The notes under the pieces: generated by a model
What the model was told of the DNA's origin: nothing
The model's database searches: none
Seen by the model: the letters and a program-made list of their open reading frames with translations, nothing else
Part shown: positions 1 to 40,197 of the stretch, piece by piece
Position numbering within the stretch: the stretch's first letter is position 1
How the letters are laid out: each line of letters starts with the position of its first letter
Source: an uncultured Bacillota bacterium
GTDB lineage: Bacteria > Sysuimicrobiota > Sysuimicrobiia > Sysuimicrobiales > Segetimicrobiaceae
Direction of reading: 5' to 3'
Assembly (NCBI GenBank): GCA_963804645.1
Contig: CAWDRG010000002.1
Location: 1 to 64,000 of the forward strand
DNA: 64,000 bases
Translations under genes and position numbers: made by a program

Positions 1-16
1 CAAAAGACTAGTGGCC

Positions 17-1158
17 TAGTGTAGTGCCTCACAAATAACTTGACAGTTCTTCGAGGTGGTGTCATGGTAGGGTTGCATGTGGACACCTCCGGACGCAGTG
101 CAGCTCACGGACGAACAGCGTCGCACACTGGAAGCGTGGGTGGCGGCGCGGACGACGCCGCAACGCCTGGCCTTTCGGGCGCGGATCATCTTGCTGGCCA
201 GCACCGGGGCCTCCAATCGCCACATTGCGCAGCAGGTGCAAACCAGCCGGCCGACGGTGATCTTGTGGCGTCAGCGCTTTGGGGCCGGCGGCGTGGCGGC
301 CCTGACCGAAGACGCCCCCGGCCGCGGCCGCAAGCCGACGTTGTCCCGCAAGAAGGTCCAGCACATCGTGGACGCCACGTTGCATACCACGCCGCCCGCA
401 GCGACGCATTGGAGCACCCGGACCATGGCGCAGGCCCAGGGCGTGAGCGCGGCCACGGTCCAGCGGATCTGGGACGCGCATGGGCTGCAGCCCCACCGCA
501 CCCGCACGTTCAAGTTGTCCACCGATCCGCGGTTTGTCGAGAAACTGACCGACGTCGTCGGCCTGTATCTGAACCCGCCGGAGAAGGCGCTGGTGCTGTG
601 TGTGGATGAGAAGACCCAGATCCAGGCCCTGGACCGCACCCAACCCGGGCTGCCGCTCAAGAAAGGCCGGTGTGGCACGATGACGCATGATTATCGGCGC
701 AACGGCACGACGACGTTGTTCGCCGCGCTCAATGTGCTGGAAGGCACCGTGATTGGCGAATGCATGGCCCGGCATCGGCACCAGGAGTTCCTGCGGTTCC
801 TGCGGACCGTGGACCGGGCCACGCCGCGGGGCCTCGCCCTGCACCTGATCCTGGATAACTATGCCACGCACAAGCACGATCAGGTTCAAGCGTGGCTGGC
901 GACGCATCGGCGCTTTCATCTCCACTACACCCCAACCAGTTCGTCGTGGCTGAATCTCGCCGATCGCTGGTTTCGCGAACTCAGCCAAAAGCGCATTCGT
1001 CGCGCGAGCTTTGCCAGCGTGCCCGATCTGAAACGGGCCATCCACGAATATCTGGCGCAGAACAATATCCACCCCAAGCCCTTCGTCTGGACGGCCAGCG
1101 TCGAGAAGATCTTGGCCAAGGTCAATCGTTGTAAAGCTATTTTGAATACACACCACTA
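17..1158 (+). mobile_element. IS630-family insertion sequence
   Basis: CTAG at both ends (16-19, 1156-1159); imperfect terminal IRs TAGTGTAGTGCCTCACAAATA vs reverse complement TAGTGGTGTGTATTCAAAATA (14/21); encloses the transposase. Confidence 0.85.
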
Positions 1159-1159
1159 G
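77..1159 (+). CDS. IS630-family transposase
   Basis: N-terminal HTH; CVDEK..QAL, HDYRRNGT, LILDNY and PTSSSWLN motifs; stop codon lies in the terminal CTAG. Confidence 0.95.
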   Translation: MWTPPDAVQLTDEQRRTLEAWVAARTTPQRLAFRARIILLASTGASNRHIAQQVQTSRPTVILWRQRFGAGGVAALTEDAPGRGRKPTLSRKKVQHIVDATLHTTPPAATHWSTRTMAQAQGVSAATVQRIWDAHGLQPHRTRTFKLSTDPRFVEKLTDVVGLYLNPPEKALVLCVDEKTQIQALDRTQPGLPLKKGRCGTMTHDYRRNGTTTLFAALNVLEGTVIGECMARHRHQEFLRFLRTVDRATPRGLALHLILDNYATHKHDQVQAWLATHRRFHLHYTPTSSSWLNLADRWFRELSQKRIRRASFASVPDLKRAIHEYLAQNNIHPKPFVWTASVEKILAKVNRCKAILNTHH

Positions 1160-1208
1160 TTAGACCGCTATTGTCCCCTTCACGGCCGTAGTGCGAGGCG
1201 TGATGTCG

Positions 1209-1248
1209 AGGCACCCGGTGTAGAATGTCACGATTTCGTGCAGTAATA
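1209..1248. repeat. ~100-bp direct repeat, copy A left part (interrupted by IS1634)
   Basis: aggcacccggtgtagaatgtcacgatttcgtgcagtaata matches aggcacggctgtaggaagtcataatttcgtgcagtaaga at 5078-5116. Confidence 0.8.
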
Positions 1249-1310
1249 CCCGACATTCCGCAAGTCGCGAAGCGAAGTCTCCCGATTTTCTCGGGGACTC
1301 TTGGGGAGGC

Positions 1311-3014
1311 CTATTGGTAGACCTCGGGCGGAATGTCCAAGAGCTCGAGCAGCGTACGTTGGAGTTGTGACAGCTCGATCGGAAACGCCGTGACCTCCCC
1401 GTTGAGCTCGACCTCGTACCACCGCACGTCTTGAAAGGCCTCCAGAATCCTGGGCCACGTTGGGGTCGGCGTGGGACGATGCTCCGGCAAGAGGGCCAGC
1501 GTCTTGAGGTTCCGCTGCCGCATGCTGGTGCGCACCTCCCGCTCGATGAGGCTCGCGACGACGAGGGCGATAAAGTAGGCGTGGAGCAGGCCCGCCGCCC
1601 GGCGTGGTTTCTTCAGGTACACCGGCGCGATCTCCAGGTCGGTTTTCAACAGCGAGAAGCGTTTCTCGACATAGGGTTGGAATTTGTACATGGCCAGGAC
1701 CTCGCGCTTCGGAGTCTTGGCGAGGTTCGTCACGAGCGGGAAGACCCCATCGGTGCGCCGCTCGCGGGCCAGGGCCTGCCCATCGCGGCGCACGTCCAGC
1801 GTGTAGGTCGTGTGTCGTTCGACCTCCACCGGCGTCTCGGCGGTGGGCCGGCCGCGCCGTAGATAGTGGCGACGCTGCTCGACGTGGCGCTTCACGGTCA
1901 CCTGGAGAAATGGCCGGGTGCCGGTCTCGCGGAGAATCTTGGTGACCGCACGCTGGATTCCCCCGTGGGTCCGATCCCGTCGCCGCTGCCGCGGTAGTTT
2001 GTCTTGGAACTCCCGCAGCGTGGCCTGGGCCTGGGCGAGGCGTCGCTCCCGCGCCTGCGCGTCCTCGACCGCTTTCTGCGAGCTCCGGATCCAGATCATC
2101 CGATATCCGTCGGCCGTGGTCGTGTACGTACCCGCACAGCTCGCGAAGATGTCTGGCGGACCATCCTTGTGCCGGTGGTTGGCGATGCGGAGAATGGGGT
2201 GCCACCGAATGCCATGGTCCCGCAGCCGATCGCGGAAGTGATGGTCTTCTTTCCAGGTCCGCGGCATCACGGTGACAAACTGCCCGCCATAGGCCGCGAT
2301 ATGCCGCAGATTGTCCTGGGTGCAGAGCTTGGCATCGGCCACGTAGATGAACTCCGCGCGGCCCACGAGCGTCCGCAAGGCGTCCACGGTGCTCCGGTGC
2401 ACCGTATCGTCGCTGCGGTTGCCGCTATGGACGTCGTGCCACACGGGGATTGCGCCATCGGCAGTGGCGGTGAGGCCGAAGACGAGCTGCTTGAGGTCCG
2501 GGCGGTGATCTTTGTTGTGCCCATGGGTGATGTGGGGCTCGCCGTGGGCAGTCGCGTAGGCGCCCTGGAACGTGACCGTGGTCGTGTCGTGGTGGAACCG
2601 CTCCGTCGCAAGTTCAAACTGCTTGATGATGCGCAAGGCCAAGCGGAACCAGATGCTGCGCCCCCGTTCGGAGGTGAGCGCATCCAGGGCCCGCGCCACC
2701 CGATCGTCGTTGATCGCCGCGTACTGCGAGGGGGTCAGCGCCAGCACCGCGGGCTCCACCGGCGCGAGCCACGTGGCGATCCGATACAGCGGGCCGGGGG
2801 AGACGAGCAGGTTGTGCACCAGCACGGCGAGCGTGCGCGCGTGATCGACGACCCCCTGGCGCGCGTTGCCCACGCAGCCGCGAATGATGGACTCCAGGGT
2901 GAGGCGTTCGAGGAAGTGCGCGATGATCGGATGCGGCCCGAGGTGATGGATCCGGTGCACCGCGCCCGGAGGAGCGCTGTGGGGACGACGGCCAGCGCGG
3001 GGCCGGAGCGTCAT
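1311..3014 (-). CDS. IS1634-family DDE transposase
   Basis: NDDRVARALD, FHHDTTT, GHNKDHRPDLKQ, YVADAK and YKFQPYVEKRF motifs; start placed at ATG 3014. Confidence 0.93.
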   Translation of the reverse strand: MTLRPRAGRRPHSAPPGAVHRIHHLGPHPIIAHFLERLTLESIIRGCVGNARQGVVDHARTLAVLVHNLLVSPGPLYRIATWLAPVEPAVLALTPSQYAAINDDRVARALDALTSERGRSIWFRLALRIIKQFELATERFHHDTTTVTFQGAYATAHGEPHITHGHNKDHRPDLKQLVFGLTATADGAIPVWHDVHSGNRSDDTVHRSTVDALRTLVGRAEFIYVADAKLCTQDNLRHIAAYGGQFVTVMPRTWKEDHHFRDRLRDHGIRWHPILRIANHRHKDGPPDIFASCAGTYTTTADGYRMIWIRSSQKAVEDAQARERRLAQAQATLREFQDKLPRQRRRDRTHGGIQRAVTKILRETGTRPFLQVTVKRHVEQRRHYLRRGRPTAETPVEVERHTTYTLDVRRDGQALARERRTDGVFPLVTNLAKTPKREVLAMYKFQPYVEKRFSLLKTDLEIAPVYLKKPRRAAGLLHAYFIALVVASLIEREVRTSMRQRNLKTLALLPEHRPTPTPTWPRILEAFQDVRWYEVELNGEVTAFPIELSQLQRTLLELLDIPPEVYQ

Positions 3015-3111
3015 CCGCCTGGGGACCGCACGGCATCTTGACGGCGCATCGGTCTGTCTGTAGAATAACAGACAGATCTCCGAAGTCAAGCATTTGTTCG
3101 AGTGTGCGGAC

Positions 3112-3465
3112 ATGGCGGACGCGACAGACGCGATACGGACGTATGAGGCGCTCAAGGCCGCGGTGGGACGCCTCGGGTGGGTCCGGCCTGGCACGCTCGT
3201 GCGCCGATTCACCCGATGCGGCAAGCCCGGCTGCCACTGCATGGCGGATCCACCGACGCTCCACGGGCCTTACTACGATTGGACCTATAAGATTCGCGGC
3301 CGGTCGATCGCGAGGCGCCTCACGGCCGCGCAAGCTCAGCGCTGCGGGCAGTGGCTGCAAAACCATCGCAGGTTGCGGCGGATCGTGCACAAGATGGAAA
3401 CGCTGTCGCGGAAGGAGACGGATCGGTTGCTACGCGCGATCGCCAAGGAACCTCACGAGAAGTAG
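3112..3465 (+). CDS. DUF6788-like small Cys/His protein inside the IS
   Basis: GTL..RCGKPGCHC...HGPYY.W motif typical of IS-associated DUF6788 proteins. Confidence 0.8.
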   Translation: MADATDAIRTYEALKAAVGRLGWVRPGTLVRRFTRCGKPGCHCMADPPTLHGPYYDWTYKIRGRSIARRLTAAQAQRCGQWLQNHRRLRRIVHKMETLSRKETDRLLRAIAKEPHEK

Positions 3466-3532
3466 GTGCGGTCTAACCCCCTAGCAAAAATCTGCAAACC
3501 CGCCCCTCAGACTTGCGGAATGTCGGGTAATA

Positions 3533-3588
3533 CCCCCGCAAAATATGGGATTTTGAGCCCTCTACCACGATATCGGCCGTGGTTTGGT
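3533..3588. repeat. ~100-bp direct repeat, copy A right part
   Basis: cccccgcaaaatatgggattttgagccctctaccacgatatcggccgtggtttggtc matches 5118-5175. Confidence 0.8.
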
Positions 3589-3652
3589 CAACTTCCTCTT
3601 GCTAGAGTGCTTGTCGGCGGGTGTTCACAACTCTCGCAAAGGAGCATTTCGA

Positions 3653-4297
3653 ATGAGAAAGCTTGTCTTAAAAATGTCGATGACGCTCGACGGATTCGTT
3701 GGCGGGCCCAACGGCGAGATCGACTGGCTGATTCGCACTTTGGATGAGGACGCAATGGCCTGGATCGCCGACACTCTCTGGCAGGCTGGACTACACGCGA
3801 TGGGCAGCCATACGTACTACGACATGGTTGGATACTGGCCGACTTCGACGGAATTGCTCGCGGCGCCAATGAACGAAATTCCAAAAGTCGTGTTTACGCG
3901 GAAACCATCCATGGACCTGGGTGTGGGGCGCACGACGACTGCGCTTCGGGACGCGACGAAGGCTCGTGAAGCAGAAGGCGGAGCAACAGCGGCGAAATCC
4001 TCTCCGAGTGCGGTCAGTTGGGCCGCCGCTGAGGTCGCAACCGGCGATCTGGCGGCAGAGGTCGAACGGTTGAAGAAGCAGCCCGGCAAAGACATCCTGG
4101 CCCATGGCGGAGCATGCTTTGCGCGAAGCTTGGTGAAGCTCGGGTTAATCGACGAATACCGCCTCCTGATTCACCCGGTTGCCATTGGCTCTGGCCTTCC
4201 GCTATTTTCGGACTTGCCAAAGCCTATGGACTTGAAGCTTGTCAGCACGTCGGTTTTTAGATCGGGTGTTGCGGCGTTTGTCTATCGCCCAGCGTAG
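3653..4297 (+). CDS. Dihydrofolate reductase / RibD C-terminal family protein
   Basis: MRKLV..MSMTLDGF, GG..FARSL..GLIDEY.L.IHPV..GSG.PLF; RBS AAGGAG. Confidence 0.92.
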   Translation: MRKLVLKMSMTLDGFVGGPNGEIDWLIRTLDEDAMAWIADTLWQAGLHAMGSHTYYDMVGYWPTSTELLAAPMNEIPKVVFTRKPSMDLGVGRTTTALRDATKAREAEGGATAAKSSPSAVSWAAAEVATGDLAAEVERLKKQPGKDILAHGGACFARSLVKLGLIDEYRLLIHPVAIGSGLPLFSDLPKPMDLKLVSTSVFRSGVAAFVYRPA

Positions 4298-4472
4298 GTG
4301 GCGGACGCACCTCGCGAACGGACTGCGGCGGGCGCACAAGCAACTTAGTAGCACGACACCGGCCGTGCAGCCCGGAGCGGAGAGCGCCGCCCAAAGAAGG
4401 GCGGACAAGAGGCCGGAGTGATCTCGTCCTGGGTCACGTGACGCCAATCGGATTCACCCGCCAGGTCTCTTC

Positions 4473-4494
4473 TGGTATGATAAATGTGAATACC
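4473..4494 (+). promoter_or_regulatory. TA promoter (extended -10 TGgTATGAT) with GGTAT..ATACC inverted repeat
   Basis: Directly upstream of the antitoxin; typical autorepression layout. Confidence 0.5.
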
Positions 4495-4513
4495 GTATGG
4501 GAGGCCGTGAACG

Positions 4514-4750
4514 ATGAGCACGCAGAAGGTGGCGATTACATTGGACCGGGTCATCCTGCACGAAATTGACCGCTTGGTGGCTGAGGGCCGCTACCCGAGT
4601 CGAAGCCGCGCCATTCAGGAAGCGCTCCGGCGACATCTGGACCGAACTCGACGGCAGCGCTTGGCCGACGAGGCCGCGAAGCTGGATCGAGCAGAGGAAC
4701 GCGGACTTGCCGAGGAGAGCCTGGTGGGTGAGGCGTGGCCCGCGTCCTGA
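4514..4750 (+). CDS. Ribbon-helix-helix (CopG/MazE-like) antitoxin
   Basis: KVAITL..IDRLV....PSRSRAIQEA RHH pattern; overlaps the toxin start. Confidence 0.88.
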   Translation: MSTQKVAITLDRVILHEIDRLVAEGRYPSRSRAIQEALRRHLDRTRRQRLADEAAKLDRAEERGLAEESLVGEAWPAS

Positions 4751-5070
4751 GAGGGAGCATCTATTGGGCGGATCTGAACCCGGTCCGTGGCAGCGAACAA
4801 GCGGGCGTCCGCCCCGTGCTGGTGCTGAGTCACGACGTCTTCAACGACCGATCTGGTACTGTGATCGCCGTTGCGCTGACGAGCCGTCCTCAAAAAGCGG
4901 GGTTCCCGCTCACGCTGCGCCTGGAGGGTACCGGGTTGCCCGCACCGTCTTGGGTGAAGATCAGTCAGATCCGAACGCTTTCGACCGAGCGGCTGGGCCG
5001 CCGAGTAGCGACGGTGTCCGCAGAAGAGCTTGACCAAGTCATTGAAGGATTGGTCGAGCTCATCGGGTAG
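4735..5070 (+). CDS. mazF: PemK/MazF-family endoribonuclease toxin
   Basis: RGSIYWADLNPVRGSEQAGVRPVLVLS..FN and SWVKISQIRTLS motifs. Confidence 0.93.
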   Translation: MARVLRGSIYWADLNPVRGSEQAGVRPVLVLSHDVFNDRSGTVIAVALTSRPQKAGFPLTLRLEGTGLPAPSWVKISQIRTLSTERLGRRVATVSAEELDQVIEGLVELIG

Positions 5071-5077
5071 TGGGTGC

Positions 5078-5175
5078 AGGCACGGCTGTAGGAAGTCATA
5101 ATTTCGTGCAGTAAGACCCCCCGCAAAATAAGGACTTTTGACCCCTCAATCACGATATCGTGGAGTGGTGTGGTC
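5078..5175. repeat. ~100-bp direct repeat, copy B (intact)
   Basis: Roughly 80% identical by eye to reconstructed copy A; contains the palindrome CACGATATCGTG (5151-5162). Confidence 0.8.
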
Positions 5176-5242
5176 GCGGGTTGTAGGCAATGAGGTTCAG
5201 CTATAGGCGAACCTCGTTCGGCCGAGCCCATAATAACCAGTT

Positions 5243-5270
5243 AGGCTGCATAATCCCCGTTATGTGATGT
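5243..5270 (+). other. dif-like Xer recombination site
   Basis: AGGCTGCATAA-TCCCCG-TTATGTGATGT: 11-6-11 layout with GCATAA/TTATGT as in E. coli dif GGTGCGCATAA-TGTATA-TTATGTTAAAT; intergenic. Confidence 0.65.
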
Positions 5271-5492
5271 AGCCATGCGTGCGGGCCCTGCACAGCAAGG
5301 TCTTCCAGCGAACACGCGAAATCGAGGTCGCCTGCCGGCCGCCGACCCCTGTCGCGCTTGGACCCCGGAGTCGGACGTGTGAGCAGTCCGTGACGCGATG
5401 TCCTCGCGACACCACGGCCTGGACGGATCATGCCGGAAGGGCCCCACCCCGGGGCTGAAGAAGCGCAGGGGGCACGAGCCCGGAGGCGTTCG

Positions 5493-8400
5493 ATGAGCTC
5501 TACAAGAGCGGAAGGCCCTGACGGCAGGTTCAGAGTAGCGTGGCCGTTGGTTCCGGCTCTCCCCGGACGTCGGATTGCCACGATCGCGATCGTGGCGGGC
5601 ACGTACCTGGTCGCGGCCAAATTCTGTTTTCGGCTCGCCTCCGTCAATCCAAGCGTCACTCCTGTCTGGCTGCCCACCGGAATTGCGATCGCAACGATCC
5701 TCTTGATTGGGTACCGTGGATGGCCTGGCATCTTCCTCGGTGCGTTTCTCGCGAATGTCACGACTGCCGGGACCATGTGGACGTCACTCGGGATCGCCAC
5801 GGGAAATACGCTCGAGGCGCTGGTCGCGGCATATCTGGTCAATCGGTACGCGGACGGTGTGGACGCATTCGATCATCCCAACACGCTATTTCGGTTTGCA
5901 TTGCTGGCCGCGGTCGGGAGTACCATGGTGAGCGCGACGATCGGTGTCACCACACTGGCCCTCGCCCGGTTCGCGCCGTGGACCGACTACGGTGCTGTCT
6001 GGTTCACGTGGTGGTTGGGCGACGCGACGGGGGCGCTGATCGTCACGCCTCTCGTATTGCTGTGGAGTCGTCGGCCGCCGACGCGGTGGTACCCCCGGGA
6101 GGTACTGCAGCGCATCGCATTCCTGGCCGTGCTGGCGGTGGTCGCCGGCATCGTTCTCAGCGGCCTTGTCCCCTATCCGTTCCTGCTCGCGCCGCTCCTG
6201 GTTTGGGCTGCGTTTCGATTCGCTCCGTGGGAAGCGATGGCCGCGCTCTTCCTGCTCGGCGGCATCGCGATTTGGGAGACCACGATGGGCCACGGCCCGT
6301 TTGCGCGCGCGACGTCGAACGCGTCGTTGCTGGAGTTACAGGCCTTTCTCGCCGCGATGGTGTTGGTCACCCTTCCGCTGGCGAGCGCTGTTGCAGAGCG
6401 CCAGGCCGCGGATCGAGATCGGCGCCGACACGAAGGCGCGCAGCGACTGCTCGCAGAGGCTGGGATGGCGCTCGGCACGTCGCTCGACCCCGACGAGACG
6501 CTCAAGGCCGTGGCACGCCTCATGGTCCCGGCGCTGGCTGATTGGTGCACCGTGGACGTTCTCACGAGCGAAGGTCGGCTCCAAACCTTAGCGCGGGTTG
6601 ATCACGATCCGGCCAACGCTGAGGTCAGCGGCGATTTGTCCATCCGAGATGCGGCGGGAACCGTGAGTGTTGTACCGGGCGTCCATGAGACGATCCGGGA
6701 CGGCCGTTCTCAAATCTACCCTGATCTGCGAGCGCATCCATCGGCGACTGTGGGAGACGCGCCGCCGCGCCAGATCGTCCGCGATTTGTACCCGCGCTCC
6801 GCGATGATCGTCCCGCTCACGGCGCGAGATCGCATCCTCGGAGCCCTGACGCTCGTGTCAACAAGTTCCGCGCGTCGTCGATATGACCAGGCGGACCTCG
6901 TGCTTGCTGAAGAGATCGCGCGGCGCGCGGCCATCGCGGTCGACAACGCGCGGCTCCATCAGATAGTGGAAGAACAACGTCTCGCCGCGGAGCAAGCCCA
7001 GCAGCGTGCGGAGCAGGCCGCCGTGCGCGCAGAGCGGCTGCAGGCGGTCACCGCTGCGCTCTCGCAGGCGCTGACACCGACGCAAGTAGCGGACGTGATT
7101 CTGACCGAAGGCAACCGGGTGTTGCATGCGGCCGCCGCGGTCGTATACGAGTTGCGGGAAGAAGATGCCAGCTTAGAGATGCTGAAGAGCGTCGGATACC
7201 CGGAACCGCTCGTGAGCGTCTGGAGCCGCATCCTCGGCAGCGCTGAATCCCCGGCGGCGGAGGCCGCGAGGACCGGACAACCCGTGTACTACGAGTCGAT
7301 CGCGGCCGTCCTGCGACGATATCCGGCGCTGCATGGCAAAATGAACCCCTACCAGGGGCGGCGAACGTTCCATCCCCTGCTCGTCGGTGGACGACCGACT
7401 GGGGCGCTCGGGTTCATCTTCGAAGAGGCCACGGAGTTTGAGACGGACGAGCGGATTTTTATCGCGGCGCTGGCGTACCAGTGTGCGCAGGCGCTCGAAC
7501 GATCAGGATTCTATGCGCGGGAACACCGCGTTGTCGAGGCGCTGCAACACGCATTCTTGCCCGTCGGGCTTCCGCAAATTCCCGGCATCGAGATCGATAC
7601 CGCATACCTGCCGGGCGCCCGCGACTCGAAGCTCGGCGGCGACTGGTACGATGTGTTTCACCTGTCGGACGGACGCGTCGCGCTGTCGATCGGCGATGTC
7701 GTGGGCCGCGGGCTGGACGCCGCCGCCATGATGGGACAGATCCGGCAAACCATCCGCGCGGTCGCGCTCAGCGGGCACGAACCGTCGGCCGTACTCGAAC
7801 ACGCCAGTCGAGTGCTGAATCTGACCCACGAGGCCGACGGGATGGCGACGGCGATCTTCGGCGTCCTGGATCCGGTCACGCGAACGTTCGAGTATTCGGT
7901 GGCCGGCCATCCGGCTCCCGTCGTGGCTCCGCCCGACGGCCCCGCGCGGGCTCTGCCTGCGGGCGGGGTCCCGCTTGGGTTTGTCAGTACCGACGAGCTG
8001 ACATCGCAGCGCGTGGTGCTCTCTCCTGGAACGCTCCTCACGTTGTATACCGACGGGCTGACCGAGTTCGCGCACGACGCCCCGGCTGGTGAGCACGCGC
8101 TGTTCCTCGCGGCCGAAGAGCTGCAACGTTCCGGGGACGCCGGTCCGGCGCACGCCCTGCTGCGCCGCGTGCTGGGGGATACGGTCGGAGCGGATGATAC
8201 CGCGATCATTACGGTGCACGTGGCTGACCACGCGCTCGATCGGTTGGATCTCCTGCTTCCCGCACGACCGTCGACGCTGCGGCTCGTCCGGCAGGCGGTT
8301 CGGCAGTTGACCACAGCGCTGTCCCTCGACAGCAGGAGCGCCGCGTCTCTCAACGTTGCGGTTGGCGAGGCGGTGAACAACGTGATCGAGCACGCGTACG

Positions 8401-9083
8401 GCGCGACCCCCGGTACCGTGTCGCTCCATGCCGAGCGAGACGGCGACATGCTACACATCGAAATCAAAGATCACGGACGCTGGCGTCCCGAGCGTCAAGA
8501 CGAGACGGGCGGCCGCGGCCTCATCCTCATGCGAGAACTCGTCGACGCGGTGGAGGTGCGCTCTACGCCTGCGGGGACGGTGACGCGGCTCAGTATCGCG
8601 CTGCCATCGGAAGCCAGCGCGGTAGAGACCGACGCGCCCGGCCGCGTGGAGACTGGCGCGGCGTCACCTGTGCGCGGCGGCCCTCAGGCTACGAGATCGG
8701 CGATCCACTCCGAGGCCGCTGCCGAGCCGATCCCCCCGGCGGCGCAACTGGAGCTTCAGCGTGTGTCCGGCGTGCCCGTTGTGTCGGTGGTCGGTGATCT
8801 GGACCTGACGAACATCGACCGCTTCGCCAGTCTTCTCGAGCGGGCGGCCAGTGGGAACGAGAAGACCGTCGTGCTCTCGCTTGCGGAGGCCACGTATCTT
8901 GACAGCCATGCTCTTCGCGTGATTTTGCAGATCGGACGGCGCATTCTGACGAGCCGCCGCCGATTGGTGCTCGTGATCCCTCCCGCGTGCTCCGTGCGGC
9001 GCATCCTTGACGCCGTCGGTCTCCACGGCGTGTTTCCAGTACAGCACTCCGTGGAAGCCGCAATCGCTGCCACGACCGACTGA
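5493..9083 (+). CDS. MASE1-GAF-GAF-SpoIIE(PP2C)-RsbW-like kinase-STAS multidomain regulator
   Basis: MASE1 (PVWLPTG, GNTLEA, WWLGD); two GAF domains; PP2C GGDWYD/GDVVGRG/YTDGL/DDTA; HATPase EAVNNVIEHAY/GRGL; STAS GDLD..YLDS; RBS GGAGG. Confidence 0.92.
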   Translation: MSSTRAEGPDGRFRVAWPLVPALPGRRIATIAIVAGTYLVAAKFCFRLASVNPSVTPVWLPTGIAIATILLIGYRGWPGIFLGAFLANVTTAGTMWTSLGIATGNTLEALVAAYLVNRYADGVDAFDHPNTLFRFALLAAVGSTMVSATIGVTTLALARFAPWTDYGAVWFTWWLGDATGALIVTPLVLLWSRRPPTRWYPREVLQRIAFLAVLAVVAGIVLSGLVPYPFLLAPLLVWAAFRFAPWEAMAALFLLGGIAIWETTMGHGPFARATSNASLLELQAFLAAMVLVTLPLASAVAERQAADRDRRRHEGAQRLLAEAGMALGTSLDPDETLKAVARLMVPALADWCTVDVLTSEGRLQTLARVDHDPANAEVSGDLSIRDAAGTVSVVPGVHETIRDGRSQIYPDLRAHPSATVGDAPPRQIVRDLYPRSAMIVPLTARDRILGALTLVSTSSARRRYDQADLVLAEEIARRAAIAVDNARLHQIVEEQRLAAEQAQQRAEQAAVRAERLQAVTAALSQALTPTQVADVILTEGNRVLHAAAAVVYELREEDASLEMLKSVGYPEPLVSVWSRILGSAESPAAEAARTGQPVYYESIAAVLRRYPALHGKMNPYQGRRTFHPLLVGGRPTGALGFIFEEATEFETDERIFIAALAYQCAQALERSGFYAREHRVVEALQHAFLPVGLPQIPGIEIDTAYLPGARDSKLGGDWYDVFHLSDGRVALSIGDVVGRGLDAAAMMGQIRQTIRAVALSGHEPSAVLEHASRVLNLTHEADGMATAIFGVLDPVTRTFEYSVAGHPAPVVAPPDGPARALPAGGVPLGFVSTDELTSQRVVLSPGTLLTLYTDGLTEFAHDAPAGEHALFLAAEELQRSGDAGPAHALLRRVLGDTVGADDTAIITVHVADHALDRLDLLLPARPSTLRLVRQAVRQLTTALSLDSRSAASLNVAVGEAVNNVIEHAYGATPGTVSLHAERDGDMLHIEIKDHGRWRPERQDETGGRGLILMRELVDAVEVRSTPAGTVTRLSIALPSEASAVETDAPGRVETGAASPVRGGPQATRSAIHSEAAAEPIPPAAQLELQRVSGVPVVSVVGDLDLTNIDRFASLLERAASGNEKTVVLSLAEATYLDSHALRVILQIGRRILTSRRRLVLVIPPACSVRRILDAVGLHGVFPVQHSVEAAIAATTD

Positions 9084-9392
9084 ACGCTCGAGGCGGTCGC
9101 GTTGCCAGCATACGGCCGCGCTATTTCAAAGGTTGACTCGGGAACATGGTTCGATCACCATAGGCCAATTCGGCGTCGTCTGTCGGAGGCAAGATGCTCC
9201 CCCTCCCCTACGCATCGTGTTGTACGTGCGTGGCCAAGAAGAGGGCGGTGGTCCCTTGCCTTCACCCTACTGAACGATATCCCGATACCCTACACGCCCC
9301 TTGGCGACCACATCGAGTTACCCGCCCGCGCGGCGAGGCTCTTAGGTGAAATCTCCAGTTCTGCGGTTGCGCCGCGGCTACCACGACGTCGC

Positions 9393-10178
9393 TCAGCGCT
9401 TGTCGTACTCGTCGTGGCGGCGCCACCAGACACCGGTCTCATTGCGCCCCTTGGGTGCGCGGTCGAGCCACTGGTACATGCCCCAGAGGCCGTCCAGTCC
9501 GCGTGCATAGGTGGAATAGGTGTGGTAGACGACGCCGTCCTCGAGCACGAACGCGCTCATGCCCGGCCTCTGGCGCGTGTACGTGGCCACGTCGGTTCCG
9601 GTCATGGCCGCGATCTCGGCGACAGGCCCGTCGCCGCGTTTCGTCAGTGAGTCGCCGATCCCGCGTACCGTCCACGCCGCCTCGCGCCGGTAGTTGTATT
9701 CGACGGCCCCCGCGCGCTGTTGCGCCTCGGTGAGCGAGACGTTGATGTCGAAGTTGAATTCACTGCCGAGCGAGGACGCCCAGGAAAACGTCCACCCCAT
9801 CCGCCGCTTGTACGCTTGCAGCTTCGCGAGCGGCGCCAGCGACACCGCCGAAAATGTGACGTCGTGGTTCGCCAGGTGGACGACGAAGCCGTTGAACCCG
9901 TCCGCGATTGACGAGCAGGACGGACACCCCGCCGTGTAGTCGGGCCCGAACATGAAGTGGTAGACGAGGAGCTGCGAGCGCCCGCGGAAGAGGTCTGCCA
10001 GCGAGGCGCTCCCCTCGTCGGTCTCGAATCGATACTCCTTGTCGACTCGCACCCAGGGTAGCTCCTGCCGCCGCCGCGCCAGCTCGTCGCTGCGCCGCGT
10101 GAGCTCCTTCTCCGCTTCGAGCAGCTCGAGCCGCGCTGCGAGCCACTCTTCACGCGTCCCGGTCATGTGCTTTGTCAT
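9393..10178 (-). CDS. DUF899 family thioredoxin-like protein
   Basis: EWLAAR..LL..EKE.TR, SQLLVYHFMFGP, GCPSCS, YHTYSTYARG, LDRAPKGRNE. Confidence 0.93.
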   Translation of the reverse strand: MTKHMTGTREEWLAARLELLEAEKELTRRSDELARRRQELPWVRVDKEYRFETDEGSASLADLFRGRSQLLVYHFMFGPDYTAGCPSCSSIADGFNGFVVHLANHDVTFSAVSLAPLAKLQAYKRRMGWTFSWASSLGSEFNFDINVSLTEAQQRAGAVEYNYRREAAWTVRGIGDSLTKRGDGPVAEIAAMTGTDVATYTRQRPGMSAFVLEDGVVYHTYSTYARGLDGLWGMYQWLDRAPKGRNETGVWWRRHDEYDKR

Positions 10179-22008: not shown

Positions 22009-22998
22009 ATGGTCGCGCGCCGCCCGCTCCGGTCACCGGTGCCGTCCAGGCATCCCCTGCTCCTCGAGTGGTGGACGGATCTCGAAGGGGACAACCGGTC
22101 CGTCAACACCCGCCTCGCCTACGTCCGCGACGTGCAGCACTTCGCCGAGTACGTCGAGAACCGCCTCGAGCAGGTCACGTCGGAGGATCTGATCCGGTTC
22201 GGCCGGCGGATGACCGAGGCGGGACTGTCCGTGGGGACCCGGGCGCGCCGGATCACGGCGCTCCGTCGCTTCTACGAATGGTTCCGTCGGCGGCAGCACG
22301 AGCCGTTCTCGGTCGCGCAGGATCTTAAGCCGCCGCGCCGGCTGCGGCGCGTGCACCGGTGGTGGACCGAAGAGCAGGTCGCGCAGTTCAGGGCGGCGTT
22401 TGAGGGAGACGACCCGCGGGTGCTGCGCGACCGCGCCATGGCGGAGCTCGGCCTGATGGGACTGCGGGTCAGCGAGGTGACACGCCTCGACATCGAGCGG
22501 GTGGTCCGCCTGAGCCGTCCCGACGACGCCTCGATCGTCGTGTCGCGCAAGGGCGGCAAGGAGCAGGTGCTGCCGTTGACCGCCGACGCCCGTGCGGCCC
22601 TGCTGCAGTGGCTCGCGGTGCGGCCCCCCGCGGCGACGACCGCGCTCTTCTTTCGGATCCCGTTTCAACCGCGCCGTGCGCGGCTGCACTACGCCAGCGT
22701 CGAGAAGATTTTCAAGCGGTACGCCGCGCGGGCCCGCGTCCCGATTCCGGACGGGATCGCGTTTCACCACCTGCGCCATACGGCCGGCCAGCAGATGGCG
22801 AACATCGGGCTCGGGATCGAGGAGGCGCAGCGTCTCCTCGGGCACGAAAGCCCGGTGACGACCCAGGTGTACTACGAGGTGACGGACGCCCGGCTGCGCC
22901 GGGCCGCGCAGCGGCTGCGCTACGCGGGGTCGAGCGGGACCGCCCCCCGGGCCCGCCGCGCGGCCTCCCCATCCGGCCTCGCGCGCCGATCGGACTGA
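22009..22998 (+). CDS. Tyrosine recombinase, XerC/XerD-like
   Basis: SAM-like N-terminal domain; catalytic R (GLRVSE), K (RKGGKE), HxxR (HHLRH), H (LGHE), Y (TTQVY); RBS GGAGG. Confidence 0.93.
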   Translation: MVARRPLRSPVPSRHPLLLEWWTDLEGDNRSVNTRLAYVRDVQHFAEYVENRLEQVTSEDLIRFGRRMTEAGLSVGTRARRITALRRFYEWFRRRQHEPFSVAQDLKPPRRLRRVHRWWTEEQVAQFRAAFEGDDPRVLRDRAMAELGLMGLRVSEVTRLDIERVVRLSRPDDASIVVSRKGGKEQVLPLTADARAALLQWLAVRPPAATTALFFRIPFQPRRARLHYASVEKIFKRYAARARVPIPDGIAFHHLRHTAGQQMANIGLGIEEAQRLLGHESPVTTQVYYEVTDARLRRAAQRLRYAGSSGTAPRARRAASPSGLARRSD

Positions 22999-39859: not shown

Positions 39860-39965
39860 CGCCAGTGAGACGTGGCGTCGTGCCAAGCAGCCGCTTGGTC
39901 TCCGCGATCTCTCGCTCCCGGCCGATGAAGCTTGTGAGTTGAACAGGTAGGTTGTCAAGACGCTG
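39860..39965 (-). pseudogene. Remnant of an NB-ARC/ATPase-LuxR-type regulator N-terminus
   Basis: LDNLPVQLTSFIGREREIAETKRLLGTT followed by loss of the expected Walker A GxGKT. Confidence 0.6.
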
Positions 39966-40197
39966 GCGAGGCGGCGAAGACACGGGGCGTTGTTGACGCA
40001 GAGGCCTTGCCGGGCGCTTAGCAGCCGGTTTCTTCGCAACCCGCTTCCGTGACCGACGAGCCATTCGTCAGCCCCGCGCGACCTGACATCGCGCTGTTGC
40101 GGTCGGGGTTCGGCAGGTCGGGAGTGTTGACCTCTGGGCGCCCTAGAGGGGGGCGGCACCCTACCCCAGAAACGCGGCGATCAAAAGATCCGCTGGG

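Follow-up and report, generated by a model that had tools for sequence, protein, structure and literature searches.

Truncated ends of a dispersed, putatively trans-mobilised cassette family beside the chromosomal dif site of an uncultured bacterium of the Sysuimicrobiota

Mobile insertion cassettes (MICs), such as MIC231 of Bacillus cereus and the TnXax1-derived cassettes of Xanthomonas, hold passenger genes between inverted repeats of the IS or transposon type, encode no transposase and have short duplications at their flanks. The ends of Tn7, Mu and IS21 open with TGT or TG and carry repeated binding sites, which are widely spaced at one terminus and close together at the opposite one, and TnsB, MuA and IstA bind the repeated sites in the ends of their own transposons. 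IMEX (CTX-phi, TLC-phi and the gonococcal island) and pdif modules sit beside dif, bring no integrase of their own, carry variable cargo and are bounded by dif-like sites. IMEX are described, for example, in PMC5357621 and bioRxiv 10.64898/2026.06.12.731946.

The locus compared with these systems here lies in a window of 64,000 nt (the whole stretch of DNA that was analysed) from an uncultured Bacillota bacterium (GTDB lineage Sysuimicrobiota; Sysuimicrobiia; Sysuimicrobiales; Segetimicrobiaceae), corresponding to positions 1-64,000, forward strand, of contig CAWDRG010000002.1 in assembly GCA_963804645.1. The assembly comprises 5.3 Mb in 22 contigs and is 96.8% complete, and the contig starts 1.2 kb to the left of the first repeat. 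Copies are named after the contigs of the studied genome (C2, C9, C15, C17 and C19), the genomes of relatives (G0xx) or the metagenome contigs L026 and L028. The predicted gene order was borne out: once the IS1634 element is removed, repeat A, a RibD_C gene, MazEF, repeat B and a 28-bp dif follow one another. The features of the window are these:

77..1159, + strand, IS630-family transposase gene (NCBIfam IS630, 278.8 bits; Pfam DDE_3 and helix-turn-helix domains); the left end of the element is the contig start
1219..1249, + strand, repeat A, left part: L-end tip TGTAGA and sub-repeat 1 (GATTTCGTGCAGT, 1232-1244)
1250..3526 (2277 bp), - strand, IS1634-family IS splitting repeat A (transposase: NCBIfam IS1634, 283 bits)
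3094-3465, + strand, DUF6788 ORF inside the IS1634 element
3534..3591, + strand, repeat A, right part: CCCCC..AAAAT-N5-ATTTTGA segment and a degenerate sub-repeat 2
3653..4297, + strand, RibD_C-type (DHFR-like) reductase gene (Pfam RibD_C, 84.5 bits), the first gene behind repeat A
4514-4750, + strand, ribbon-helix-helix antitoxin of a type II TA pair (pair 4514..5070; Pfam RHH_1/RHH_8)
4735-5070, + strand, PemK/MazF toxin of the TA pair (Pfam PemK_toxin, 109.8 bits; NCBIfam MazF, 51 bits, under the cut-off)
5087..5179, + strand, repeat B: L end that breaks off behind sub-repeat 2 (77.8 bits; positions 4-101 of the 159 in the model)
5180..5224, - strand, candidate 15-codon remnant of an IS1380-type transposase (RPNEVRL*LNLIAYN)
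5243..5270, + strand, chromosomal dif: XerC-type arm AGGCTGCATAA, spacer TCCCCG, XerD-type arm TTATGTGATGT
5430..9083, + strand, MASE1-GAF-GAF-SpoIIE(PP2C)-HATPase-STAS sensor gene (Pfam)
9269..9294, - strand, R-type end: inverted tip and sub-repeat 1 (TGTAGGGTATCGGGATATCGTTCAGT; 0 mismatches to the tip pattern)
22093..22911, + strand, Xer-like tyrosine recombinase gene (TIGR02225, 145.7 bits, under the equivalog cut-off)

Perfect inverted repeats of 17 bp bound the IS1634 element, and the 7-bp sequence GTAATAC is duplicated at its flanks (1243-1249 and 3527-3533); the element is 99.96% identical to C19:301827-304103, and another copy lies on C15. The segment at 5180-5224 is possibly what is left of an IS1380-type transposase gene, judging from 46 nt at 80% identity to such a gene in G010 and 12 of 15 residues matched by tblastn (E = 0.005 within 15 kb); no DNA match to the IS1380 copies of the studied genome was found. 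The IS and toxin-antitoxin content had been said to stop at dif, but the 9.3 kb to its right are also non-syntenic with relatives and contain, at 9269-9294, the repeat tip in inverted orientation. The sensor gene, which sits between dif and this R-type tip, had no match among the best matches per kb of the dif flanks of four relatives.

The site at 5243-5270 has the layout of a dif, with two 11-bp arms around a 6-bp spacer and an ATAA-N6-TTAT core that occurs once in the whole 5.3-Mb assembly. Allowing up to three mismatches, its 27-mer was found once in the window and in none of 100 shuffles, and no second dif-like site was detected in the 22 contigs, the next best match reaching 15 of 22 arm positions. 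The site is conserved in seven relatives with unrelated flanks (G006, G011, G012, G014 and, with up to three mismatches allowed, G010, G003 and G001), and canonical dif sites such as GCATAATGTCTCTTATGTTAAGT are present in other families of the order. Single in the assembly and kept in relatives despite differing flanks, the predicted dif-like site is, by its sequence, the genuine and only chromosomal dif. The GC skew switches from plus to minus at about 80 kb on this contig, some 75 kb from dif. The Xer-like gene at 22093-22911 is the best XerD-like match of the genome, which has two more Xer-like genes on C15. In four relatives, homologs of the gene at 22093-22911 are found 8-10 kb from dif; this gene is part of the conserved surroundings of dif and not of the repeat elements.

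An attI-like core overlapping the dif-like site had also been proposed. The GTTRRRY motif occurs five times in 3.1 kb against 3.75 expected, which is chance level, and it is not kept in G006 or G011. An integron was rejected: against a cut-off of 265 for the integron-integrase model, the nearest tyrosine recombinase scored 47.7 bits, and the repeats form no conserved attC hairpin (-3.6 kcal/mol).

The two repeats of about 100 bp described in the original prediction are present, but each retains about 95 bp of a unit whose length, in copies elsewhere, is about 140 bp. A complete L end opens with the TGTAGG tip; after 7-9 bp comes a 13-bp sub-repeat (consensus GATATCGTTCAGT), and then a conserved run of C and the palindrome AAAAT-N5-ATTTT. 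Sub-repeats 2 and 3 have the same orientation as the first and start 54 and 24 bp further on. The R end has the same tip and sub-repeat, inverted, and its sub-repeats are packed. The 54/24-bp spacing was found in all three copies in which the three sub-repeats were detected (L026, G010:C163 and G002:C105), and the 54-bp interval is also kept in four further copies. Full copies were matched by the profile with E-values of 1e-36 to 1e-44. Seven tips, five L ends and two R ends, were located in the studied genome:

C2:1219 (A), C2:5087 (B), C17:624549, C17:852532, C9:700285: L ends
C17:621720, C2:9294: R ends

GC and GC3 fall at the L end C17:852532. For most L ends, no partner end could be detected. 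The family is patchy, being present in four of the 94 genomes of the phylum, and no match to it was obtained in species-representative genomes, plasmids or viral contigs.

Repeat B has its TGTAGG tip at 5087-5092 and its sub-repeats at 5100-5112 and 5154-5166, and repeat A lacks sub-repeat 3. Local matches between them cover 1219-1251 and 5087-5119 (85% over 33 nt) and 3533-3575 and 5118-5160 (86% over 43 nt), and a profile made of four full-length copies from elsewhere matched both halves of A (E = 4.2e-4 and 2.8e-12). With the halves of A joined, identities were 74/90 for A and B, 78/90 for A and C17:624549, and 83/92 for B and C17:624549; B is 92% identical to C17:624462-624549 over 88 nt. 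Each of the two is nearer to C17:624549 than they are to one another, which marks A and B as separate members of the family and not as products of a local duplication.

Units with both ends arranged as terminal inverted repeats around passenger genes were found twice, in different genera. The first (C17:621720-624549; 2.83 kb) carries GNAT and SDR genes and is flanked by AGTGATTGT and AGTGATTCT, matching at 8 of 9 positions. The second (G010:C163:913-8844; 7.9 kb) has CCCCG at both flanks, and its tips are near-identical inverted repeats of 26-27 nt that differ by one base and one gap. At the locus itself, dif is enclosed by the right-facing L end B (5087) and the left-facing R tip (9294), a pair that no matching duplication flanks. 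Evidence of movement came from L026 and L028, which are 98-99% identical to C9:917756-925945 of the studied genome. L026 contains a 1636-bp unit, whose first bases are exactly TGTAGG, at a site that is uninterrupted in the studied genome (C9:925733-925735), and L028 stops 268 bp into the same unit. A 3-bp identity, AAC, marks the insertion, and the right end of the unit has no TGTAGG tip. Filled and empty sites, as sought in the original prediction, therefore exist, at a place that bears no resemblance to dif. The duplications of the three events measure 9 bp (8/9; C17), 5 bp (G010:C163) and 3 bp (L026), a variation unlike that expected for a single DDE transposase.

Variable cargo behind the ends, another of the expectations, was found among copies and genomes alike: RibD_C with MazEF, SDR (three times), GNAT, LuxR-STAND and DinB_2-PCMT. 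The first gene behind the L end is co-directional with it in seven of nine independent copies. Among the genes inspected beside the copies, no recombinase, transposase or integrase adjoins any of them, so the expected co-occurrence with a particular integrase was not seen.

We think it reasonably probable, taking the account as a whole, that A and B are truncated L ends of non-autonomous elements, mobilised in trans, that piled up beside dif. Each would have been acquired independently and since cut down from the L end of a small non-autonomous element, amid mobile DNA (IS630, IS1634 and the MazEF module) piled up next to the XerC arm of the true dif. A transposase supplied in trans, perhaps absent from the studied genome, would bind the sub-repeats and then move the unit as a cassette; Xer recombination at dif would not be what moves it. 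The presence beside dif may come from a preference for inserting, or for being retained, in the replication-terminus region, and later truncations and IS insertions would have produced the present order of remnants.

The closest known kind is the MIC. The family differs from MICs in having long, asymmetric ends (three spaced sites over the 140 bp of an L end) in place of simple IS repeats, an inconstant duplication length and mostly copies that are short of one end; moreover, a cognate autonomous IS or transposon was not found. With Tn7, Mu and IS21 it shares the TGT terminus, sub-repeats that are spread over one end and packed at the opposite one and, in the G010:C163 unit, the 5-bp duplication; it departs from them in the 9- and 3-bp duplications of the other two events and in lacking linked tns, tni, mu or ist genes, no TnsA, TnsB, TnsC, TniQ, MuA or IstAB gene being linked to any copy. 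A search of the four genomes in which the family occurs found no autonomous element with matching ends. Those IS21 and rve elements that were inspected have ends unlike those of the family, and the rve matches belong to other IS elements. Pfam searches for the Mu-transposase C domain, TniQ and TnsA had no match in the studied genome, but they are uninformative because the control genomes were equally silent.

Ends within 4.3 kb of dif account for three of the seven tips in the studied genome and for one of the two L ends in G010, and all near-dif L ends lie on the XerC-arm side in one orientation. The G010 case (contig C171), in a second genus, bore out the expected recurrence beside dif: its L end and a dif-like site are 4.3 kb apart, the L end being on the matching side and in the matching orientation, with cargo in between that is unrelated to that of the studied locus. 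With random placement, the probability of falling within 5 kb of dif would be about 0.002 per element (10 kb/5.3 Mb, by our own arithmetic). Of the five L ends of the studied genome, three sit on other contigs, away from any dif-like site, and at least three of four L ends in other genomes have none in the fetched flanks. The fetched flanks of the L ends at G010:C163, G004:C23 and L026 have no dif-like site; G002:C105 is a contig of only 6.2 kb. The dif loci of six of seven relatives carry no L end. The original prediction would have failed if only two copies existed, or if copies were scattered without relation to dif or integrases; more copies exist, and the scatter holds for most of them, not all.

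It is doubtful that the family targets the flank of dif, next to the XerC arm and with a single orientation. Such a "dif hunter" would depend on a trans-acting transposase that reads a structure associated with the terminus or with Xer/FtsK, and the dif flank would then be a dedicated cargo-capture site in the phylum. Analogues are the Tn5053 family, which is res-hunting, and the TnsE pathway of Tn7, in which transposition is biased to about 100 kb around the terminus; the studied family has neither TnsE nor Tn7 genes, and Tn7 is not known to put its ends so close to dif as a few kb.

That the repeats are attachment arms of a Xer or tyrosine-recombinase element of the IMEX type, whose repeated integration at dif left tandem cargo modules, seems quite unlikely. 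Repeat B does end about 65 bp from the XerC-type arm (about 50 bp had been claimed), A lies 4 kb upstream in the shared orientation, and the L end of G010:C171 has the matching placement; moreover, MazEF is typical of integrated plasmid-like modules, an Xer-like gene belongs to the dif neighbourhood, the AAC identity would fit a short crossover core, and a left-hand dif-like site is conceivable beyond the contig start, 1.2 kb left of A. However, IMEX and pdif modules are bounded by dif-like sites, whereas this locus has one dif and none at its other boundaries, the best other candidate in the assembly being the 15/22 match. Most members of the family are away from dif, as are the polymorphic insertion and its site, the dif loci of most relatives have no L end, and the ends are 26-nt terminal inverted repeats with flanking duplications. 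The tyrosine-recombinase mechanism is not supported, with no second dif-like site in the assembly, no integrase at the copies and insertion away from dif. That the repeats are ends of mobile elements, present as separate copies, stood; that they are Xer or integrase attachment arms did not.

Similarly low is the probability that the unit of about 140 bp is no transposon end but has a regulatory role, as a promoter region whose three direct-repeat operators serve one transcription factor and which was duplicated before stress or redox genes. The prevailing co-direction of the first gene, the oxidoreductases or detoxification-type proteins that many first genes encode, and the fixed 54/24-bp spacing of direct repeats beside a small palindrome would agree with it. 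Inverted partner copies with no gene behind them (C17:621720 and C2:9294) speak against it, as do the presence or absence of the 1.6-kb unit between strains with its boundary exactly at the tip, the lack of an inward sigma-70-type promoter in the two copies scanned, and the identity of 82-90% among A, B and the C17:624549 copy, which is unusually high for promoters of one regulon. Read as an RNA, the unit had no conserved predicted structure at the same -3.6 kcal/mol, and the copies scanned had no Rfam match. Finally, a local segmental duplication or chance similarity is hardly credible: only two copies lie within the studied interval and AGGCAC stands just outside both tips, but two other contigs and three further genomes have copies as well, with the profile E-values given above, and A and B each have their closer relative at a distance.

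These results provide a first experimental handle on the dif/Xer neighbourhood in a small uncultured phylum (94 species-level genomes), including a dif consensus with an unusual G+C-rich spacer. They also describe cargo cassettes of a new family, with ends similar to those of Tn7 or Mu and a putative transposase that would act in trans. If the recurrence near dif does not reflect targeting, the locus would be an ordinary junkyard of mobile DNA in the terminus region, and the architecture that the original prediction could not name would resolve into known classes. If the recurrence in two genera is due to targeting and not to retention, it would represent a new mode of target selection by transposons.

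The host assembly comprises 5.3 Mb in 22 contigs with a G+C content of 69%, and the window is the 64 kb that start its contig C2. The parts of the dif-adjacent locus were laid out as follows.

Features of the dif-adjacent locus (window positions):
77-1159, transposase gene of an IS630-family element (278.8 bits), the left end of the element being the contig start
1219, start of repeat A, interrupted by an IS1634-family element; the remainder runs to ~3591
1250-3526, IS1634-family element (283 bits, IS1634 model), splitting repeat A
3653-4297, RibD_C reductase gene
4514-5070, genes for a ribbon-helix-helix antitoxin and a PemK/MazF toxin
5087-5179, repeat B
5243-5270, 28-bp dif-like site

The original prediction had described this order of parts, and its description was correct because both halves of repeat A match repeat B (85% over 33 nt and 86% over 43 nt); B and dif, claimed to be ~50 bp apart, are separated by ~65 bp. 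This interval holds what may be the remains, 15 codons long, of a transposase gene of IS1380 type (5180-5224, minus strand), which, if real, means that B was cut back by another insertion or deletion. The IS1634-family element, with 17-bp perfect inverted repeats at its termini and a 7-bp duplication (GTAATAC), was 99.96% identical to a copy on contig C19.

A profile search together with pattern scans located seven tips of this repeat family in the host genome, five of long ends (L ends) and two of short inverted counterparts (R ends).

Tips in the host genome (contig and position):
C2:1219, L end, repeat A
C2:5087, L end, repeat B
C17:624549, minus strand, L end
C17:852532, L end
C9:700285, L end
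C17:621720, R end
C2:9294, minus strand, R end

A full L end spans ~140 bp and consists of a TGTAGG tip, 7-9 bp, the 13-bp sub-repeat GATATCGTTCAGT or a variant of it, a run of C with a small palindrome (AAAAT-N5-ATTTT), and sub-repeats 2 and 3 in the same orientation, whose starts follow at distances of 54 and 24 bp. All of the sub-repeats were detected in three copies, each of them with this 54/24-bp spacing, and four more copies had the 54-bp interval. At C17:621720 the R end shares this tip and sub-repeat; behind them come a second sub-repeat and possibly a degenerate third, spaced ~22 bp apart as read from the sequence. Repeats A and B are both cut off after sub-repeat 2. In both, the motif AGGCAC stands outside the tip at a distance of 3-4 nt (1210-1218 and 5078-5086); it is absent outside the other copies, which reflects either a shared target preference or chance. 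Additionally, 20 nt in the coding region of the mazE-like gene (4548-4567) were 85-90% complementary to sub-repeat 1 (5100-5119 and 1233-1252), and could be a chance match or derive from a former inverted end. Just inside the R tip of the window, a 79-nt repeat resembles a hairpin (GGCAAG...CTTGCC, 9186-9264); its second copy, C20:1039-1117, adjoins a stretch resembling a segment of C9 that has a group II intron domain (Rfam RF02003) in its vicinity.

The decisive case for the mobility of the units that carry these ends was provided by the metagenome contig L026. This contig is 99.2% identical to C9:924133-925735, then carries a 1636-bp insert, and then continues at 99.1% identity to C9:925733-925945. 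The insert starts exactly at TGTAGG and matches the copy at C9:700285 over L end, leader and SDR gene with 92.7% identity, and a second contig, L028, has the same left junction. Since the site is filled in L026 and L028 and uninterrupted on C9, the host holds the empty site. The junction duplication of this unit was AAC only, and its right end, lacking a tip, stops two bases past a sequence resembling one sub-repeat; this may be the result of a small deletion in which the tip was lost along with most of a 9-bp duplication.

Two further units were delimited by ends on both sides. The 2.83-kb unit C17:621720-624549 has inverted tips, encloses GNAT and SDR genes and is bordered by AGTGATTGT and AGTGATTCT; the protein flanking it belongs to a family of 50-80 paralogs per genome, and an empty-site search by this protein was uninformative. 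In G010, a genome of a different genus, a 7.9-kb unit (C163:913-8844) has CCCCG at both flanks and near-identical inverted repeats of 26-27 nt at its tips, differing by one base and one gap. Its cargo includes a DinB_2-PCMT gene, plsY and an IS110-type gene. Moreover, the L end at C17:852532 lies exactly at a drop in G+C and third-position G+C.

A role of the L end as a regulatory module is suggested by the first gene, which was co-directional with the L end in seven of nine independent copies. Such a module does not account for the inverted partner ends or for the presence/absence polymorphism. A consensus scan of two copies, which is a weak test, predicted no inward promoter. A coding remnant was discarded, the opposite-strand peptides of the L ends looking alike yet having in-frame stops in two of the five copies, which is read as conservation at the DNA level. 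An RNA element was rejected as well: the consensus fold of the five L ends reached just -3.6 kcal/mol, Rfam gave no match in window positions 1-10000 at E values up to 1, and at gathering score it gave nothing at the copies of the window, of L001-L003 and of L026. A local duplication was dismissed, A and B being identical at 74/90 positions versus 78/90 (A) and 83/92 (B) to C17:624549. 

The ends of this family resemble in layout those of Tn7, Mu and IS21, in which the terminus is likewise TG(T) and sub-repeats occur in several copies, widely spaced at one end and close together at the other. No copy with its own transposase or integrase was found in the neighbourhoods examined, and the Pfam models for TnsA, TniQ and the Mu transposase C-terminal domain had no match in the host, the control genomes being equally silent. 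IS21-type helpers were present in the host and absent from G010; the host IS21/rve elements that were inspected had other ends, without TGTAG tips. IS110-type genes were found inside two units. IS110 was provisionally set aside as the mobilising enzyme; the gene at C17:852727 belongs to a 3-kb multi-copy IS inserted in a different repeat. Of the categories described, the mobile insertion cassette comes closest; in it, according to PMC4337579, IS-type inverted repeats surround passenger genes and the cognate transposase acts in trans. The units have unequal flanking duplications (9, 5 and 3 bp), and many copies are one-ended.

The repeat that holds the IS110-type element at C17:852727 is a second family, made up of a conserved ~100-nt leader and the N-terminus (MARRPKKR...) shared by LuxR/STAND regulator paralogs. 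The repeat also comes after the L end in two cases, C17:852532 and L026, and was seen at the following positions.

Copies of the LuxR/STAND leader repeat:
39875-40139 of the window, minus strand
C9:121773
C22:4157-4230
C17:623225-623308

The dif site at 5243-5270 is real. The pattern ATAA-N6-TTAT occurs once in the entire assembly, the dif 27-mer with up to three mismatches had a single match in the window and no match in 100 shuffles, and the second-best candidate genome-wide matched just 15 of 22 arm positions. The strict core CATAA-N6-TTATG was present in 11 of 31 genomes, host included, and a relaxed search added three more (G010, G003 and G001). A near-identical site, [GT]CTGCATAA-[TG]CC[CG]CG-TTATGTGAT, was found with unrelated flanks in one genome of the same genus (G006) and three of the same family (G011, G012 and G014), and other families in the order have canonical dif sites, e.g., GCATAATGTCTCTTATGTTAAGT. 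The sequence GTTAGGC, proposed as an attI core, overlaps the XerC-type arm from just outside it; this proposal did not hold up, since GTTRRRY had five matches in 3.1 kb versus 3.75 expected and the core was not retained in G006 and G011.

On the XerD-arm side, four relatives have homologs of C2:14.5-23 kb in the order of the host, and on the XerC-arm side relatives have homologs of C13:37-44 kb, genes that in the host are not beside dif and lie mid-contig on C13. The distance from dif to the first syntenic gene is 9.3 kb in the host versus 2.9 kb in G006. Together with the displaced C13 homologs, this means that extra DNA lies on both sides of dif, contrary to the claim that mobile content stops at this site. 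A caveat to the dif assignment is that GC skew switches from plus to minus at ~80 kb on C2, ~75 kb from dif. With the position of the C13 genes, this suggests that the terminus has been rearranged. The best XerD/XerC-like tyrosine recombinase gene of the genome (22093-22911, plus strand; 145.7 bits, below the equivalog cut-off) is within the syntenic C2 block, 17 kb from dif, and its homolog is 8-10 kb from dif in four relatives. This conserved nearness suggests that xer may be kept close to dif in the phylum, an arrangement known from XerS and XerH systems.

L ends were patchily distributed. A sequence-only covariance model detected them in four of 94 genomes of the phylum (the host, G002, G004 and G010), the class-level and phylum-level scans covering the same 94 genomes, and found none in 639 kb of unrelated genomes. 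BLAST against 40 relatives gave no L end, its two weak partial matches being unrelated coding sequence. Exact-pattern scans gave none in species-representative genomes or viral contigs, plasmids had no L-end match, and metagenomes yielded three contigs, one of which, L027, was the MazF-B-dif stretch of the window itself. All 80 loci kept as relatives of the SDR cargo came from other phyla with identities of 50% or less, and an L end was present at none of them.

In the host, A, B and the R tip at 9294 are all within 4.1 kb of dif. This site lies between B and the R tip; the two ends face each other, and there is no matching duplication around the pair. One of the two L ends of G010 (C171:5098) is 4.3 kb from a dif-like site, CGTTATAA-GACCCG-TTATGTGAT (positions 782-804, minus strand, of L045 from C171), on the XerC-arm side and pointing to it, with unrelated cargo between. 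That site, with an XerD-type arm identical to that of the host and an XerC-type arm GTTATAA instead of TGCATAA, is probably the dif of that genome. By our own arithmetic (a 10-kb target in 4-5 Mb), placement near dif by chance has a probability of ~0.002 each, and the association of the ends with dif exceeds chance. It is possible that the terminus preferentially retains junk DNA, that the ends were carried on elements integrating there, or that the terminus is truly targeted, a precedent for such targeting being the TnsE pathway of Tn7 (PMC4678854). Clustering of copies at dif, which the original prediction asked to check, was not the rule: most are elsewhere, and six of seven dif loci of relatives (12-20 kb covered) had no L end.

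The original prediction was right in recognizing a real dif, mobile-element ends and repeated acquisitions with variable cargo; its mechanism, a tyrosine-recombinase element of IMEX type with the repeats as attachment arms, was wrong in kind. The second dif-like site of IMEX is missing here, assembly-wide, and the insertion in L026 is at a site that is not dif-like. The locus, which had been said to match no nameable class, is best regarded as the remnants of cargo cassettes from a new, non-autonomous family, alongside ordinary IS elements, in a plastic zone around dif, and the recurrence of the ends at dif in two genera is the single point deserving follow-up.
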